From IMG/VR virus record IMGVR_UViG_3300042890_002891, positions 66,831-130,830 of that record: DNA of 64,000 nucleotides. One strand, 5' to 3'. The stretch comes from a virus (Duplodnaviria; Heunggongvirae; Uroviricota; Caudoviricetes). The position numbers and the translations under genes were made by a program. Of this stretch, positions 4,524 through 26,525 are shown piece by piece. A model generated the notes under the pieces. The model did not search any database and was not told the DNA's origin. It saw only the letters and a program-made list of their open reading frames with translations. The first letter of the stretch is position 1. The number at the start of each line of letters is the position of its first letter.

Positions 4524-4627
4524 AGATACCTTTCTGTTAAAATACTATTGTACAACTATTTACTATAGGAGTCAACTATAAAATGATATTTTTCAATTGT
4601 AAATTCCTATTACATCAATAGGTCAAG

Positions 4628-4653
4628 AAAAAGCCCACCGAAGTGGGCTGATT
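4628..4653 (-). terminator. rho-independent terminator after the tmRNA
   Basis: Identical to 3916-3941. Confidence 0.85.
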
Positions 4654-4654
4654 G

Positions 4655-4970
4655 CTATTTTTGATTACAAGGTATAACTACCTCGTTTGGCGTCAAGCGT
4701 TAGCTGCTACCAAATATTGTGAGTCATTTGCATTTCTCTTTTTTGTGTCTACGGCCGAGCTTCCCCAACCCTAACGGCTTCTACATTGCCGGACTGTCCA
4801 TTTCTGTACTCTTAACCCTGTCGAAACTATGCAGGCCCATTATAAAGAATACTACTGAATTGTGTTGGATGTTGCCATCCGCAAAAACCTGTGCAATATT
4901 CTTTATGGTGGACCTGGGGGGATTCGCACCCCCGTCCAGAATCCTTTTCTGTCTACTTCATACAGTCTTA
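4655..4970 (-). ncRNA. ssrA: circularly permuted (two-piece) tmRNA
   Basis: T-arm and CAGGUCC-A-CCA acceptor piece (ends 4906) precede a hairpin spacer and the GGGCCUG...UUCGAC coding piece (starts 4838); G3.U70 pair; tag ANDSQYLVAANA* at 4731-4693; outer ends approximate. Confidence 0.9.
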
Positions 4971-4978
4971 ACTGTTAT

Positions 4979-5863
4979 TTATTTTAATGAGTTAACTGAG
5001 TCTTCCCAGTCTTGATTGAATGTTGACATTTTTGTATCCCACTCAAACTTCATTCCACTACCTTCCCAAATTTTAGCAGTGTTTGAATTGGGATTCTGAT
5101 GTACAGCCTTCATAGCAGCCTGAATCTTGTTGCGTTGTGCATCAGTTGCGTTCTTCAAGATAAAAAGCACATAGTAGCCGACCTTGAGATTTTTGTTGGC
5201 AAGATCTTTTGCAGCCAATGGAATCAAGGCATCAGCTGACGATGGGCTCATACGATACATGCATGTGCCGTTGCCTGACTGTGCAAATTTTCTTGCCAGC
5301 TTGCTTTCAATGATACCGTAGTCAACTTCACCGTTTAGCAAAGCAGTGATAGTGCTTGGACTGCCAGCAGCAAAATGCACAGGTTTGTGAGTGGTCTTGA
5401 ATGACGCATTGATTCCGTTGTTGATGCTATTGACCATCACACTAGCAGGAATGGCATGTCCAATCCTGTACGATGATCCAGCTGTGACCATACGGGCAGC
5501 ATTCATTTCTGGTTTGGCTGAACAGATATAGTAAGAGTCATAGTGTACACGAATCAATTCTTTTTCGGTAAATGTCATTATATTGCAAGAGCCTTGTTTG
5601 CGGATACCGGCGTCTATGTCGCCTGCCCAGGGAAATAGCACAGGCATATTTTTATCTATTTTGTCAATAACAGCCGTTGCCAGGCACCCAGATCCTGGGT
5701 TGATGTAGTCAATTTTGAATTGGTTCTGCAGATCCTGGGTCAATGCACTGGTCTCCAGATAGAACCCACCTGTTTTTGAGCCAGTGTTCACAATGGTGAT
5801 GTCCTGTGCCGCAGCAGCCAAGGTCATGGTTGCAAACGCAACCAACGCTAGTAATTTCTTCAT
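4979..5863 (-). CDS. periplasmic solute-binding protein (TctC/Bug- or TAXI-like)
   Basis: Signal peptide, GSKTGG and ALLNGEVD motifs, adjacent to TctA. Confidence 0.6.
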   Translation of the reverse strand: MKKLLALVAFATMTLAAAAQDITIVNTGSKTGGFYLETSALTQDLQNQFKIDYINPGSGCLATAVIDKIDKNMPVLFPWAGDIDAGIRKQGSCNIMTFTEKELIRVHYDSYYICSAKPEMNAARMVTAGSSYRIGHAIPASVMVNSINNGINASFKTTHKPVHFAAGSPSTITALLNGEVDYGIIESKLARKFAQSGNGTCMYRMSPSSADALIPLAAKDLANKNLKVGYYVLFILKNATDAQRNKIQAAMKAVHQNPNSNTAKIWEGSGMKFEWDTKMSTFNQDWEDSVNSLK

Positions 5864-5878: not shown

Positions 5879-7159
5879 TTAAAAATACAATGAATGGAGT
5901 CTAAGTCCATAATCCAACAACTTGTCACCGATAAAGTATCCAAATATCAGTCCAGTTGTGTCTCTAAGTCGTAGTGCCCATCCGAGTATGAGCAGACACA
6001 CCATGCATTGTAACACAAATACCATGTTGTAGTCAAGCCAGGCCTGATACAATATTGCCAAAACCAAGATGGCCAAAATGCCTGCACGCAACAGTTTCAA
6101 ATTGGTTCTTAGTATGGTGAGTACCTGTGTGACCAAGGGCCAGGCCATGATCAAACCAATTGCTGCCACAGTCATCTGCAGCAGTGCAGTTGCGCCAAAA
6201 ATTATCGACGCTGATGCAATTGATGCTGTGAATCCTTTCAACTCCATCAGCGACAACGCTATGGCTTCGCTGGGCACCAGAGGTAGCCCAAATATTATCA
6301 AGGGTATCAGCTGCGACACCGCTCCTGCATTGTTTGCTGTTTCTGCAGATATGATTCTTTCTCTAGGATCTGTGGTGGTTCTACAGGTTATGTTATAGCT
6401 CAGCATTGAACTAAAAATCATTGCCAGGCCAGGCATGAGTCCACCCACAAAACCCACGGCACTGTATTGCGTGATGCGCAGATAATTCAATCTGGGCCAC
6501 TTGACTGATGTTGGTATGTGGTTCACCGTCACAGCAGAATTAGACAGTCGATACAGCTGAGGAAATGTAAACAAACACAGCAGCACAATGTCCCAGGGAA
6601 CTCCTGCTGTGAGTGAGCTATTTCCAAAGGTAAGAATACCTGTCTCTAGATTAGAGTTATACCCAACCAGGCCCAACAAGATTCCTGACAGGCATAGCCC
6701 AATACTGGTTTTCAAATCGTCACTAGAATATTTTATTACACCTATCAAGGCAAACACAAACAACATTGATATCAGTTCAGTACGCAAGAAGTAACTCATT
6801 GCTGACAAGTGTGCTGCAAGAATCCAACATGCTGTTATAGATAAGATTGCTGCCACAAAACTACCGACCGCGGCAGCAGCAATTGTGTCTCCGTACTGCG
6901 ATGCTGGCAGTCTTGGTAGCTCTGCTACTGTGGGTATGCCACTGGGTTCTCCTGCAATCCCTGTGTACATGGTGGTAACACTACCGGTGAATTGACTAAT
7001 TTGAGTTAGTGCAGCATAGAACAAAAATATATCTACAGGCGCCCAGGTTATTAAAAACGGAGCAGATATTATCATGGCTATCAAGATGCCCATGCCAGGT
7101 AAAATTCCAATGGCCATACCCAGCAATGATCCAGCCAGGATGGCCAGCAGATGTTCCAT
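5879..7159 (-). CDS. tctA: tripartite tricarboxylate transporter permease TctA
   Basis: GILPGMG, ETANNAG..SQLIPLIIFGLP motifs; polytopic membrane protein. Confidence 0.85.
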   Translation of the reverse strand: MEHLLAILAGSLLGMAIGILPGMGILIAMIISAPFLITWAPVDIFLFYAALTQISQFTGSVTTMYTGIAGEPSGIPTVAELPRLPASQYGDTIAAAAVGSFVAAILSITACWILAAHLSAMSYFLRTELISMLFVFALIGVIKYSSDDLKTSIGLCLSGILLGLVGYNSNLETGILTFGNSSLTAGVPWDIVLLCLFTFPQLYRLSNSAVTVNHIPTSVKWPRLNYLRITQYSAVGFVGGLMPGLAMIFSSMLSYNITCRTTTDPRERIISAETANNAGAVSQLIPLIIFGLPLVPSEAIALSLMELKGFTASIASASIIFGATALLQMTVAAIGLIMAWPLVTQVLTILRTNLKLLRAGILAILVLAILYQAWLDYNMVFVLQCMVCLLILGWALRLRDTTGLIFGYFIGDKLLDYGLRLHSLYF

Positions 7160-15033: not shown

Positions 15034-15117
15034 ATTTATATAATACCATAGAAAAACACACTTGGCTCCCCTTGGTTGTTTGTATCTGTCAATTCAGATT
15101 GAAAGTGCGTTTATCTA

Positions 15118-15193
15118 TGGTAGGACCACTCGGACTCGAACCGAGGATTTACAGGTTAAAAGCCTGATGTTATAACCGCTTAACTATGATCCC
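15118..15193 (-). tRNA. tRNA-Lys(TTT)
   Basis: Cloverleaf, CCA. Confidence 0.92.
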
Positions 15194-15196
15194 ATG

Positions 15197-15271
15197 TGGT
15201 CCCTCCACCGAGATTTGAACTCGGACGTCACGGATTAAGAGTCCGGCATGCTGCCTTAACATCTTGAAGGG
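15197..15271 (-). tRNA. tRNA-Lys(CTT)
   Basis: Cloverleaf, CTCTTAA loop, CCA. Confidence 0.88.
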
Positions 15272-15332
15272 TTGGTATGTAAAATTGTCTTTCACGTGCC
15301 AACCCGGACCTACACAGGATCTGGAGTTGACA

Positions 15333-15359
15333 CTATAGTTTAGGAGATTTTCGTTTCAT
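15333..15359 (-). CDS. putative Lys-rich leader peptide MKRKSPKL
   Basis: 3 of 8 codons are AAA; the stop codon overlaps one arm of alternative hairpins that reach into tRNA-Lys(CTT). Confidence 0.5.
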   Translation of the reverse strand: MKRKSPKL

Positions 15360-15625
15360 ATAGTTCTTTCTTTGGTGTGACTGTTGTTATTTTCTGCGTG
15401 TGAATTTGCGCAGAAATTTTAAAAAATAATATTTCAACCCGCGTAGTGGGGCCAACTCAAATGCGAATTGTCCCGGCAGCTCACGCGGGACACTGCGTAG
15501 GCTCGATCAATGACTTCTTTGCTGCTTATGCTGCACTTCAGTTGTTTAATAACACTCTGCGACAGAGTTTAGCCGGATTACATCAAATATTCTTGTAACC
15601 TATCAGCTGCTCAGGATCATTTTAA

Positions 15626-18159: not shown

Positions 18160-18195
18160 AAAAGAAAAAACCCTGGAGTTTTTAGTTCCAGGGTC
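18160..18195 (-). terminator. attenuator terminator GACCCTGGA-loop-TCCAGGGTT-TTTTCTTTT
   Basis: 9-bp stem plus U-tract; its 5' arm can alternatively pair with 18238-18253. Confidence 0.85.
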
Positions 18196-18360: not shown

Positions 18361-18389
18361 ATTATACTTTATTTATCATTTGATGTCAA
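18361..18389 (-). promoter_or_regulatory. perfect sigma70 promoter TTGACA-N17-TATAAT with an embedded TAAATA box
   Basis: Exact consensus 10 nt upstream of the leader ATG. Confidence 0.85.
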
Positions 18390-21326: not shown

Positions 21327-21798
21327 ATATAGAAACACACTCAAAACTGCTGTTAAACCCTTGCAGGGGCATGCCTAGTTAAAAAATGTGTTCTTATATG
21401 GCTGGCAATGTTATGAGGGCTCTTACCCCATCGTTGTTTGTATAGGCTGCGCGACCTATACATCCCGGACACACTCCCTGACCCGGCAATGCTTACTTTG
21501 TGGCTCTTGCTTTCCACTTGATTCTGATCATATAGAAACACACTAGAGTTTTACGATAAACTACGCTCCTGAGTTTCTGCTCAGGACCCCATAGGTCTGC
21601 CTATGTTTCTAATGTGTTTTTATATAACAAAATAGTGAACAGGATTTGCACCTGTGCCCACAGCCTGTTGACAAGACTGCACTCTCCTACTAATCTACCA
21701 CCATATAGGAACACACTGGCACTCAATTGTCAATTGCAGAGCATAATAATTCTACGCCCTATGAGTTACGCATACTCTTCCAATGTGTTTTTATATGG
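21325..21798. repeat. three tandem hairpin elements with the conserved closing stem CATATAGRAACACACT...AATGTGTTYTTATAT
   Basis: Copies at 21325-21401, 21529-21626 and 21701-21798; further copies at 15044-15122 and 22015-22255. Confidence 0.75.
21632..21704 (-). ncRNA. degenerate tRNA-like element (TCA at the centre of the anticodon loop, no encoded CCA)
   Basis: ACAGG-TGCAAAT-CCTGT T-arm, CAGTCT/AGGCTG stem, ATGGTGG/TCACTAT acceptor. Confidence 0.45.
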
Positions 21799-24410: not shown

Positions 24411-24643
24411 GATTTCTCCAGAGTCCGTAATAGCGTTTTTTCCCGAAATGTGGCCAGGCGTTGGTCAAGTTCGGCCCTGACATCCCAGTGTTGTTTGCTG
24501 AGTCTTAAAACCCAGGCACTCAACAGGCCCAGCTGATATGCAATTTCATCTGCGTCCGTGTATTGGCCGCCACTGCTGACTGCGTTTAGCACATCAGTTA
24601 TTTCTTTGTGATTTTTTACGTGAACTTTTAGGTTGCTATACAT
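24407..24643 (-). CDS. hypothetical protein
   Basis: Coupled ORF. Confidence 0.55.
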   Translation of the reverse strand: MYSNLKVHVKNHKEITDVLNAVSSGGQYTDADEIAYQLGLLSAWVLRLSKQHWDVRAELDQRLATFREKTLLRTLEKS

Positions 24644-25097
24644 GCCATATCTCCTGGAACCCCTCTTCCAGTGTGGGTTCTTTCAAATTTTGTAACATAC
24701 TTAGCATCACATGATCCGGAATGCTTTTGCCTGGACGGCCAGCCAGTCTACGAGCAAGTTCCACAGGTTCGGGTGTGCCAAACACCACAGCAATATGTTC
24801 ATAGTCGGGCAGCATGTGAAACTTCTTTCGTCGGCTGGCCACAGTGGTTGAGGTTTGATCCCAGATCACACTGTGACCATGTTCCCGTGCAAACACCACC
24901 TGTTGAGCCATTAGATCCACTGCTCGAGGCATGTAGTCTCGAAACACTTGATTGTAGGTTTGGCCTTGTGCTCTAGCATAGTCTTCCACAAACGTGTCTG
25001 TACTAACCACAGTCAAGCCCAGGGCCCATATTTGGTTCCGGATCCAGGTGCTTTTACCCGAACCTGGCACTCCAATCATTTGATAACATTTTGGCAT
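24636..25097 (-). CDS. P-loop polynucleotide kinase-like protein (AAA_33)
   Basis: GVPGSGKSTW, STD, WDQT, R...R lid. Confidence 0.8.
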   Translation of the reverse strand: MPKCYQMIGVPGSGKSTWIRNQIWALGLTVVSTDTFVEDYARAQGQTYNQVFRDYMPRAVDLMAQQVVFAREHGHSVIWDQTSTTVASRRKKFHMLPDYEHIAVVFGTPEPVELARRLAGRPGKSIPDHVMLSMLQNLKEPTLEEGFQEIWHV

Positions 25098-25984
25098 CCT
25101 GCCTCCAGATAGTTTCTAACCCAGGCCAAGCGAGCCTGTTCGTCCATCACAGTATAAGTGTCGATGTTGTTGCGTATGTGATCCAACAGCGGGTAGTATT
25201 CCTCGTCAATCTGTTCTCGAAACTGTTGAGTCAACAACTTGTCAGTTCTTGGGTTACGTGCCACCCACTTGGCAGTCAGGTAGTAGGGTGACTTCAACTT
25301 GGAACTCACATTACCTTCATCGGTATAGAAAACAAAACCTTCGTGCTTGACAGTCTTGACTTCTTGCAATAGTTGACCCATTGAAGTGTAAAACGACTGC
25401 ACAATGCGTGTGCGAAACGCATTTTGCAACAGCATCATGATTGCAGCATTGGCCTCAATTGGACTGCACCATTCGTTCTTGCGCATGCCCAACAAGTACA
25501 TGCCTGGCTGCTCAGGAACAATGTGTGGATCACTTTCATGAACACATTCAAACATAAATGTGTGGCCTTCATACTGCTTGCAAGTGGCACGATAACGATC
25601 TATGTTGTCACCAATCATTTCACGTGCCATGTCAACATAAGGACTGTCAGTGCTACCAGTTGTGCTGATCAGTACATCATCCCGATACCATGTGCAAGCC
25701 ACCATGAAACCGTTGACCTTGCGATAAGCAGTCACATGAACATTGTCAGCCAGCACAGGTGCAGACTTTTCAATGCCGTAGTTGTAGATCTTGGTGAATG
25801 GATAAGCAACCAAGTTGAAGTCACGATCCACAATGCTTCCACGACATTCGGCAATGTATTCGTCCCAGAGGCTGTCGTAGAACACTTTCTTCTTGTACTT
25901 GAGCACGTAGATACCATCGCCACATTCTCGGCGGTTCACCAGATTGGATGATTCCACATACTGTTTTAGTTTTTCTCTAAACAT
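25076..25984 (-). CDS. T4 Rnl1-like RNA ligase
   Basis: ECRG, F.KI.N, motif I KVNG, FE, EGFV, KLKS..Y. Confidence 0.85.
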   Translation of the reverse strand: MFREKLKQYVESSNLVNRRECGDGIYVLKYKKKVFYDSLWDEYIAECRGSIVDRDFNLVAYPFTKIYNYGIEKSAPVLADNVHVTAYRKVNGFMVACTWYRDDVLISTTGSTDSPYVDMAREMIGDNIDRYRATCKQYEGHTFMFECVHESDPHIVPEQPGMYLLGMRKNEWCSPIEANAAIMMLLQNAFRTRIVQSFYTSMGQLLQEVKTVKHEGFVFYTDEGNVSSKLKSPYYLTAKWVARNPRTDKLLTQQFREQIDEEYYPLLDHIRNNIDTYTVMDEQARLAWVRNYLEAGCQNVIK

Positions 25985-26525
25985 GATGACCCTTGATCTT
26001 GCCTTTTAGGGCTTGTGCAATAGCACGTTCCATGGTGATAGCAATTGCGCCAGTGGCATCCATGCCCACGTCCAACGCACGATAATTTTCCAGGCTGCTG
26101 GTGCCACCGTGCAAGTGTCCGTGAAAATGAACAGCACCGCGATGCATCTGATCCCACTCTGCTATGGGATAATGAAACATCACTACCTTGGTTTCGTTGA
26201 ACTGTGCATCCAGGTACTTGTGTATCTGTGCAAAGCAGTCACGGAAATCCTGATCTTGCAACAGCTTGCGGTCGTGGTTGCCTTCAACCAGAATCTTGAC
26301 TCCATTCAGTCGACGCACAGTTGCCACGGCTTTTTCCGCAGGCAAGAATGCCACGTCACCCAGAATGTACACAGTGTCGTCTGCGCCAATCAAGTCGTTC
26401 CATTCTCGAATCATGGCCTCGTTCATGTAGGCCACATCGTTACGAAACCGTGCCCGTGACTCAGGGCAAAATTTCATTATGTTCTTGTGTCCCCAGTGGA
26501 GATCACTTGTGATCCAGGTTGTCAT
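25977..26525 (-). CDS. calcineurin-like metallophosphoesterase
   Basis: SDLH, LGD, GNHD, HYP, HGHLH motifs. Confidence 0.9.
   Translation of the reverse strand: MTTWITSDLHWGHKNIMKFCPESRARFRNDVAYMNEAMIREWNDLIGADDTVYILGDVAFLPAEKAVATVRRLNGVKILVEGNHDRKLLQDQDFRDCFAQIHKYLDAQFNETKVVMFHYPIAEWDQMHRGAVHFHGHLHGGTSSLENYRALDVGMDATGAIAITMERAIAQALKGKIKGHHV

Follow-up and report, generated by a model that had tools for sequence, protein, structure and literature searches.

A two-state RNA leader with a lysine-codon micro-ORF before tandem phage tRNA-Lys genes, a candidate ribosome-read switch

In translational attenuation leaders, such as those of ermC and cat, a ribosome stalled within a micro-ORF remodels the hairpins located downstream of it. 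The post-transcriptional regulation of individual tRNA genes is, to our knowledge, almost unknown in bacteria and phages. The leader-peptide transcription attenuators are represented by trpL, hisL, pheL, thrL, and leuL (PMC1183508). At the level of tRNA precursors, what has been demonstrated to date for the gating of RNase P by leader structure is a designed device, in which a theophylline aptamer and a sequestor hairpin are placed before supF and the sequestration of the leader blocks RNase P (PMC7897497). In E. coli, the stem-loop of the valV leader and the pairing of the leader with the RCCA inhibit RNase P and order the processing (PMC9433436). A leader peptide or an attenuator preceding phage tRNA genes was not found in the literature searched, the coverage of which is incomplete.

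The element considered here is located in a 261,673-bp IMG/VR virus record obtained from lake water, which is about 75% complete and therefore belongs to a jumbo phage. The analysed stretch of this record, 64,000 nucleotides long and referred to as the window, contains 29 tRNAs recognized by ARAGORN and a permuted tmRNA, every one on the minus strand. Two neighboring genes, tRNA-Lys(CUU) and tRNA-Lys(UUU) (tRNA1 and tRNA2), are preceded by a leader with a lysine-rich micro-ORF. Of the features that characterize the attenuators of the trpL/hisL type, this leader has the ORF with the Shine-Dalgarno (SD) sequence, weak in the window, the cognate codons, and the mutually exclusive helices, but not the G+C-rich terminator followed by a U tract. 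Since there is no terminator and the targets are tRNAs, the element is not a member of the leader-peptide attenuator family. The hairpin sequestering a downstream ribosome-binding site (RBS), which defines the ermC and cat leaders, is likewise absent, as the tRNA genes lie directly 3′ of the leader, with no ORF or RBS. The covariance models of the T-box and of the lysine (L-box) riboswitch gave no match (Rfam, E up to 10, positions 15100–15480).

The locus and its relatives

The features of the element are collected in Table 1. The original prediction placed the micro-ORF encoding MKRKSPKL, the three segments (A, B, and C), and the two tRNA-Lys genes correctly; all lie on the minus strand, and the tRNAs are recognized by ARAGORN and Rfam. 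The start of tRNA-Lys(CUU) at 15271 agrees with the further claim that the CCC at 15271–15269 constitutes nucleotides 1–3 of this tRNA. The A:B helix consists of 10 pairs, two of them G.U, and extends into a 38-nt hairpin (−16.7 kcal/mol, z −2.9). The B:C helix consists of 7 pairs and is joined by the inner 6-bp hairpin.

Table 1. Features of the leader and the two tRNA-Lys genes (positions within the window)
Feature	Position	Strand	Remarks
A/G-rich stretch AAAGAAAGAAC, SD position	15363..15373	-	weak in this phage
Micro-ORF ATG AAA CGA AAA TCT CCT AAA CTA TAG (MKRKSPKL)	15333..15359	-	ATG 15359-15357, TAG 15335-15333
AAA (Lys) sensor codon (proposed), two codons before the stop	15339..15341	-	invariant in the parsed relatives
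Segment A GTGTCAACTC, anti-antisense strand, first base = G of TAG	15324..15333	-	pairs with B
Anti-junction strand GATCCTGTGTAGGTCC, 16 nt between A and B	15306..15321	-	predicted ON fold: top of the A:B hairpin; predicted OFF fold: antisense to the tRNA1-tRNA2 junction
Segment B GGGTTGGCAC	15296..15305	-	partner either A or C
Inner hairpin GTGAAA-GACAA-TTTTAC, brings C beside B	15279..15295	-	in the ON and OFF predictions; covariation
Segment C ATACCAACCC, core CCAACCC	15269..15278	-	last 4 leader nt and nt 1-3 of tRNA-Lys(CUU); spans the RNase P cleavage site
tRNA-Lys(CUU), CCA encoded, first pair C1-G72	15197..15271	-	ARAGORN; Rfam tRNA 44.5 bits
Junction target GGACCA-CAT-GGGATC	15188..15202	-	3′ end of tRNA1 with CCA, spacer, first six nt of tRNA2 with its RNase P site
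tRNA-Lys(UUU)	15118..15193	-	ARAGORN; Rfam 65.9 bits
Trailing clamp hairpin, begins on ACCA of tRNA-Lys(UUU)	15044..15122	-	-28.6 kcal/mol, z -5.6

The region between the micro-ORF and the tRNAs contains no intrinsic terminator; what comes after B:C, TTCAAGATG, already belongs to the tRNA. The transcription terminator was thus rejected as the output of the element, in agreement with the earlier proposal of a processing or folding switch. No strong promoter is located directly before the leader in this phage, and a perfect sigma-70 promoter is found farther upstream, at 18389–18361. The Rfam scan of positions 15100–15480 with E up to 10 gave nothing besides the two tRNAs and one reverse-strand match below the threshold, and no family for the leader came up at the gathering thresholds either.

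The trailing clamp hairpin adjoins the element on its other side, and the same closing stem is present 3′ of tRNA2 in the relatives; its functional link with the leader is unproven. Clamp hairpins lacking an ORF are also carried by these phages on the CCA ends of tRNAs.

Neither the DNA of the region nor its proteins had a match in the GenBank phage collection. In IMG/VR and a metagenome collection, the relatives were searched for with fragments taken solely from tRNA-Lys(CUU), so that the leader was not used for the selection, and it was nevertheless present in every match with enough upstream sequence (51 loci, 40 of them distinct). The second search, with a 17-nt motif of the leader, gave 116 loci, 73 of which carry the leader, before very different tRNA-Lys sequences. 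The parsed set comprises the 71 distinct instances that remained after the removal of duplicates and in which both tRNAs were called by ARAGORN. The distinct relatives number about 90 in total and come from uncultured phages. A pattern search of the genome collection produced eight matches, three real and five due to chance, and the radical-SAM neighbor, used as an anchor, led to one IMG/VR relative, where the gene order around this neighbor is different and the Lys leader is located elsewhere in the same record.

The leader occurs before tRNA-Lys genes only, namely before the 71 pairs and, in the locus L132, before tRNA-Lys(UUU) alone. The latter is devoid of tRNA-Lys(CUU), yet its ORF is retained, and its leader still matches the 5′ end of tRNA-Lys(UUU) in antisense. 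The arrangement is far above chance, as it recurs in every relative with enough upstream sequence, and A, B, and C show compensatory changes.

One strand with alternative partners

Both alternative helices are preserved by the relatives. In the set of 40 sequences, 98.5% of the cells of A:B are paired and compensatory changes are present in two columns, and for B:C together with the inner hairpin the respective values are 96.4% and four columns, the inner hairpin contributing the pairs 87–105 and 89–103. None of the shuffles reached the observed covariation, and slid partners were paired in about 40–55%. The presence of the A/B/C motif in the relatives and the covariation of its helices, proposed as a check of the original prediction, were therefore found for A:B as well as for B:C. 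The wider set contains 26 distinct combinations of A and B, in which position 7 appears as A-U, U-A, and C-G, and the U.G at position 4 of A is nearly invariant (25 of the 26). Changes in B are matched in both A and C, as in the GGGATGG clade (with CATC and CCATCCC), in L010 (GGGTTAG), and in L087 (AAGGTGG). Compensation of this kind, in A and C alike, marks a strand that can pair with either of two partners, and a two-state architecture of this RNA is very probable.

The B:C duplex covers 4–8 nucleotides of the leader and 2–4 nucleotides of the tRNA 5′ end in 65 of 65 distinct relatives. It thus reaches the −1/+1 position in each of them, as is characteristic of leaders gating RNase P, and a second duplex covers the corresponding site of tRNA2. 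The strand between A and B supplies this second duplex: it runs antisense to the spacer and to the two tRNA ends that flank it, the 3′ end of tRNA-Lys(CUU) and the 5′ end of tRNA-Lys(UUU). The energy of the duplex in the window is −23.6 kcal/mol, compared with −7.5 ± 2.8 kcal/mol for the shuffles. The 65 distinct relatives average −25.9 kcal/mol and extend from −16 to −31.5, nearly all of the values falling between −22 and −31 kcal/mol, compared with about −6.5 for the shuffles. The duplex includes the last 6–8 nucleotides of tRNA1, the whole 2–7-nt spacer, and the first 4–10 nucleotides of tRNA2 in these 65 relatives.

The loop of the leader and the spacer covary in both sequence and length: CATGTA is accompanied by CAT, GTATT by ATAT, and GTATAT by TATAC, the last combination forming a perfect 13-mer in L003. 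Further covarying pairs are CCCCC with GGGGG and CTTCC with GGAAG. The pairing register of this helix shifts between the clades; for this reason no column-wise counting of pairs was applied to the MAFFT alignment (A2), and the helix was scored by the duplex energies of each sequence, by permutation, and by the counts of pair types. The non-Watson-Crick juxtapositions comprise 94 G.U and 2 A.C. This excess indicates that the pairing is selected in the RNA, on the tRNA strand, and not as a DNA repeat. The cognate partners exceeded the permuted ones in 2000 of 2000 trials for the junction duplex and likewise in 2000 of 2000 for B:C (mean −11.5 against −9.0 kcal/mol), although many of the relatives are closely related, so that permutation statistics overstate the independence, and the independent compensatory events number about 6–10.

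These results modify the earlier view of the inhibitory fold, which had been identified with B:C. The covariation of B:C speaks for its participation, but this helix makes up only about one third of the fold, and it is the antisense-junction duplex that would gate both tRNAs.

The micro-ORF and the proposed ribosome-read switch

The conservation of the ORF and of its Lys codons had been named beforehand as one point on which the prediction could fail, and both are conserved. The ORF stays in frame through four length classes of 6, 7, 8, or 9 codons, an internal stop is never seen, and the codon located two positions before the stop is AAA in 71 of 71 parsed relatives and never AAG. The second codon is AAA in 69 of them and AAG in 2. 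Counted over the distinct ORFs, the Lys codons are AAA in 68 cases and AAG in 3, whereas the long ORFs of the phage have AAA and AAG in the proportion 382:248. The Lys content amounts to 2–3 residues in 6–9 codons, compared with 5.3% in the long ORFs. The remaining codons vary freely, with 19 synonymous and 28 non-synonymous changes along the minimum spanning tree and mostly small residues (A, G, S, T), so that the constraint concerns particular codons and not the peptide. With two or three non-tandem codons, the run of Lys codons is unlike that of the classical attenuators, which counts against the reading of the ORF as a sensor.

The stop codon is an invariant TAG in the family and is fused to helix A, the G being the first base of A:B; only 1 of the 33 long ORFs of the window ends with TAG. 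The distance between the AAA codon and the helix is fixed at 5 nucleotides. Of 65 distinct leaders, 55 have an SD core (AGGA, GGAG, GAGGT, or AGGAG; 4–5 nucleotides) at a distance of 5–9 nucleotides ahead of the ATG. The SD of the window, described as weak from the beginning, indeed has no canonical form: its clade is devoid of a 4-nt core and shows just GAAAGAAC, with GAAAGAGGTAC in close relatives of the same clade. Judging from these patterns in the sequences, the ORF is probably translated and matters for the function, and we infer that it is the ribosome that sets the fold of the leader.

In the mechanism that is favored here, with moderate confidence in it as a whole, a ribosome-read sensor of lysine tRNA would decide about the folding and maturation of both phage tRNA-Lys. 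Its central part would be a 23-nt strand of the leader (15321–15299), which is antisense to the last four nucleotides of the leader together with the first three of tRNA1, to the CCA-bearing 3′ end of tRNA1, to the spacer, and to the 5′ end of tRNA2. During transcription, A would be the first to pair with this strand, forming a hairpin lock (the ON state), in which both tRNAs would be free to fold and RNase P would cut them. A ribosome reaching the TAG would unwind the lower half of A:B, since the stop codon already contributes the first base of the helix. The two steps past the AAA (CNN and TAG) would open about six pairs and leave B with its 3′ half unpaired; from this toehold C and then the tRNA junction would zip onto the antisense strand, giving the OFF state. 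The start of the invasion would fall at the U.G of position 4 of A. In the OFF state, the RNase P site of tRNA1 (from −4 to +3 or +4), that of tRNA2 (from the spacer to +6), and the CCA end of tRNA1 would be buried. When Lys-tRNA(UUU) is scarce, the ribosome would wait at the AAA, the still intact hairpin lying just where the mRNA enters, so that ON would persist and new tRNA-Lys would be made; with ample Lys-tRNA(UUU) the ORF would be read through and the RNA turned to OFF, which constitutes a negative feedback. As AAA is read only by tRNA-Lys(UUU), which itself would be gated, the feedback would act on the very species that is sensed.

The predicted energies are consistent with such an order of events. 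For a transcript ending at B, the A:B hairpin is the predicted minimum. With C present, the B:C fold becomes slightly better (−23.1 against −21.4 kcal/mol), with the junction present the clamped fold is clearly ahead (−59.5 against −47.6 kcal/mol), and for the full precursor of the window the values are −72.5 and −66.3 kcal/mol, with larger gaps in the relatives; all of them describe the secondary structure only and ignore the tertiary folding and modification of the tRNAs. By these predictions, the ON state is a co-transcriptional kinetic trap and the OFF state is the energy minimum. All bases of B are paired in the ON fold, leaving no toehold for C, and when pairing was forbidden for the nucleotides under a terminating ribosome, thereby masking A, the clamped fold resulted in every case examined. 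The initial idea that the ribosome masks A is upheld to the extent that masking gives the OFF fold; with A:B being a kinetic trap, the likely role of the ribosome is rather the opening of the toehold on B. If the OFF state is strongly favored, it might also form regardless of ribosomes.

The position of the hairpin is consistent with a role in decoding. When the AAA occupies the A site, the first A:B pair, with the G of TAG, lies at +12 from the P site's first nucleotide. The bacterial mRNA channel holds 11 nucleotides beyond +1, and stem-loops 11–12 nucleotides downstream inhibit the binding of tRNA to the A site (PMC7282821). By analogy, the hairpin would slow the decoding of the sensor AAA and make it sensitive to the level of Lys-tRNA(UUU).

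One alternative, which appears unlikely, is that the element senses the general status of translation or serves as a timer and has no specificity for lysine. Any ribosome finishing the ORF would then flip the RNA to OFF, and tRNA-Lys would be made when overall translation is impaired or in the interval before the ribosomes load. The Lys codons would be kept for expression, as an A-rich second codon, or for reasons at the nucleotide level; well-expressed genes often have AAA in second position. The otherwise unconstrained peptide agrees with this possibility, as does the replacement of the first Lys codon by ACT in L041. In addition, the base following the sensor codon is C in 71 of 71 parsed relatives, making the last sense codon CNN, with the unparsed L139 as an exception (AAA-ATG-TAG). 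This invariant C lies outside the proposed model and could reflect a constraint on the nucleotide rather than on decoding. A general sensor does not, however, account for the restriction of the leader to tRNA-Lys genes, nor for the choice of the invariant codon: AAA has the gated tRNA-Lys(UUU) as its sole reader and keeps a fixed distance to the helix. At the remaining tRNA clusters of the window, a simple scan detected no micro-ORF with cognate codons.

Slightly less probable is a device independent of the ribosome, which would order the cleavage or chaperone the folding of the pre-tRNA in the manner of the rRNA processing stems or of the valV stem-loop, the ORF being untranslated or conserved for another reason. 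Every helix is supported without reference to the ORF, and both the ORF-less clamp hairpins of these phages and the weak SD of the window point in the same direction. The maintenance of the frame through all the length classes and the SD core of most leaders argue against it, and the constant fusion of the stop codon to the first A:B pair would be a geometry without purpose if there were no ribosome. The OFF duplex also includes mature ends of the tRNAs, so its cutting would produce wrong termini.

The switch read by the ribosome could also have another output, a proposal that is improbable to a somewhat greater degree. The OFF duplex of about 22–24 stacked base pairs, in which 15–17 bp of the antisense-junction helix are stacked on the 7 bp of B:C along one continuous strand, would then recruit an enzyme of the RNase III type and lead to the destruction of the precursor, or it would be a stable storage form. 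The duplex is, however, broken by the body of tRNA1 and by bulges, and each of its segments is shorter than the typical substrates of RNase III. The OFF state is taken here as a block of RNase P maturation, because leader sequestration and pairing inhibit RNase P in the designed switch and in the E. coli leaders; by this analogy, maturation would be the step controlled by the ribosome-read switch.

Repeats acting at the DNA level, as a recombination or protein-binding site, or the chance complementarity of near-palindromic GGATCC-like words are extremely improbable, since the promiscuity of GATCC, GGTCC, and GGACC, owing to which non-cognate pairs of leader and junction reach about −21 kcal/mol, is opposed by the far weaker shuffles, by the covariation of loop and spacer in length and sequence, and by the strand-specific G.U bias, a sign of RNA-level pairing on which the DNA reading was rejected.

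The possible benefit of such a switch for the phage is related to defense. tRNA-Lys is the target of PrrC. It is also the target of PARIS AriB, and AriB is neutralized by a phage tRNA-Lys (PMC11464382). In the window, an RNA ligase of the Rnl1 family (T4), a P-loop kinase, and a metallophosphoesterase are grouped at 24636–26525, 9 kb from the element, a context that would fit a phage expecting an attack on tRNA and a counter-defense role of the leader. In its broadest form, the interpretation is that of a strand-displacement device with the ribosome as its reader: the test of a single AAA would cage or release a cis-antisense strand clamping two tRNAs, and tRNA-Lys(UUU) would be resupplied on demand after the action of PrrC/PARIS-type nucleases or lysine starvation. 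Such a post-transcriptional counter-defense circuit, the first natural case of translation-gated tRNA maturation, is put forward tentatively, as a possibility with less than even chances.

Relation to known regulatory leaders

If the proposed mechanism is true, the leader is a compact natural sensor-actuator of about 90 nucleotides that links how one codon is decoded to how much of its tRNA is supplied. It would then give direct access to the way in which large tRNA sets are managed by the phages that carry them, connect the tRNA-Lys genes of phages with the arms race against defense systems that cleave tRNA, and offer a ready-made part for the synthetic control of tRNAs. The roughly 90 distinct natural variants make the mutational logic and the covariation easier to use in experiments.

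Among the known systems, the dnaX frameshift site shares with the leader the succession of a Lys codon, 5 nucleotides, and a stem, and the dnaX hairpin hinders the binding of tRNA to the A site (PMC7282821); the slippery heptamer of dnaX is absent here. The ermC and cat leaders differ in that they unmask a downstream RBS and respond to an antibiotic, neither of which applies to this locus. In the designed RNase P riboswitch, as in the model presented here, pairing by the cleavage site of the pre-tRNA is the off state and an alternative fold releases it. The designed switch is, however, synthetic, takes a small molecule as the input, and masks only the leader, without the tRNA ends or a second tRNA. 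The valV stem-loop and the leader-to-RCCA pairings are instead fixed structures of few pairs that lack a sensor, an alternative fold, and an ORF.

With the trpL and hisL attenuators, the leader shares a short ORF containing codons cognate to the controlled product and a chain of mutually exclusive helices (1:2, 2:3, and 3:4 in the attenuators), there chosen by the position of the ribosome, as is proposed here. The proposed model also has in common with them the stalling at a hungry codon that leads to expression, and hence the negative feedback. In the attenuators, the last helix of the chain is an intrinsic terminator, whereas here its place is taken by the acceptor stems of two tRNAs. The attenuators act on biosynthetic mRNAs through transcription, while the phage-borne leader precedes tRNAs and is likely to act on their maturation or folding, with the codon run of the attenuators replaced by one putative sensor codon that keeps a constant spacing to the helix.

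Variants of the Lys leader

The Lys leader (the micro-ORF with segments A, B and C) varies among relatives. In L132 (IMG/VR contig 3300025396_000644), a leader encoding MKRGKR lies immediately 5′ of tRNA-Lys(UUU), and tRNA-Lys(CUU) is missing. This leader is still antisense to the 5′ end of tRNA-Lys(UUU), but its B:C pairing is down to about 4 pairs.

In many clades, GUGUC within segment A can also pair with GACAU(G) at the start codon, as examined in L013, L003, L030 and L010; L010 has AGCAU with GUGCU, with two compensated positions. Such pairing would mask the AUG after the release of segment A, which is a possible latch of the OFF state. It is absent from the clade of the window, where the sequence reads CUAUAUG.

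The stop codon of the leader ORF is invariantly TAG, even though TAG is rare as a gene stop in the window, where the 33 long ORFs (≥200 aa) end in TGA (20), TAA (12) or TAG (1).

Flanking elements and neighbouring genes

The long hairpin behind tRNA-Lys(UUU) is formed by the strands ACCAUAGAU.AAACGCACUU and AAGUGUGUUU.UCUAUGGU. Most relatives have the same closing stem 3′ of this tRNA, with one conserved mismatch, and the inserts enclosed by it are unrelated. The promoter type found ahead of the Trp-Arg-Ala-Tyr-Ser-Thr tRNA run, GTTGACAAC...TGTTGTATAAT, also occurs upstream of the Lys leader in many relatives. The tag of the permuted tmRNA was read by ARAGORN as ANDSQYLVAANA; the TctA-family gene adjoins this tmRNA, within the phage genome.

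Features of the window outside the Lys leader
Feature	Position	Strand	Remarks
Permuted (two-piece type) tmRNA, phage-encoded	4602-4998	-	Rfam tmRNA_permuted, 93.9 bits
TctA-family tricarboxylate transporter subunit	5879-7159	-	426 aa; E 4e-42
Long hairpin	15044-15122	-	begins on ACCA of tRNA-Lys(UUU); -28.6 kcal/mol, z -5.6
11-bp hairpin	18170-18194	-	precedes the Trp-Arg-Ala-Tyr-Ser-Thr tRNA run
42-codon ORF	18350-18222	-	between the promoter and the tRNA run
Promoter, perfect TTGACA-17-TATAAT	18389-18361	-	upstream of the tRNA run
tRNA	21631-21704	-	Rfam, 35.1 bits; none reported there by ARAGORN
P-loop kinase (AAA_33), T4 Rnl1-family RNA ligase (PF09511), metallophosphoesterase	24636-26525	-	three adjacent genes

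Occurrence in binned contigs and a likeness to T4

The leader was also found on L188, L190 and L193 (genome_contigs). These contigs are assigned to a Haliscomenobacter MAG and to bins of an uncultured Bacteroidetes and of Polynucleobacter; that of the Haliscomenobacter MAG is 183 kb long and falls in the MKRKSRKL clade, shared with the window. Probably all are phage contigs that were co-binned; as pointers to the host, the bins give only weak hints.

The adjacent kinase, ligase and phosphoesterase genes form a tRNA-repair-like trio. In T4, a repair set of like kind is used against PrrC, the tRNA-Lys anticodon nuclease.
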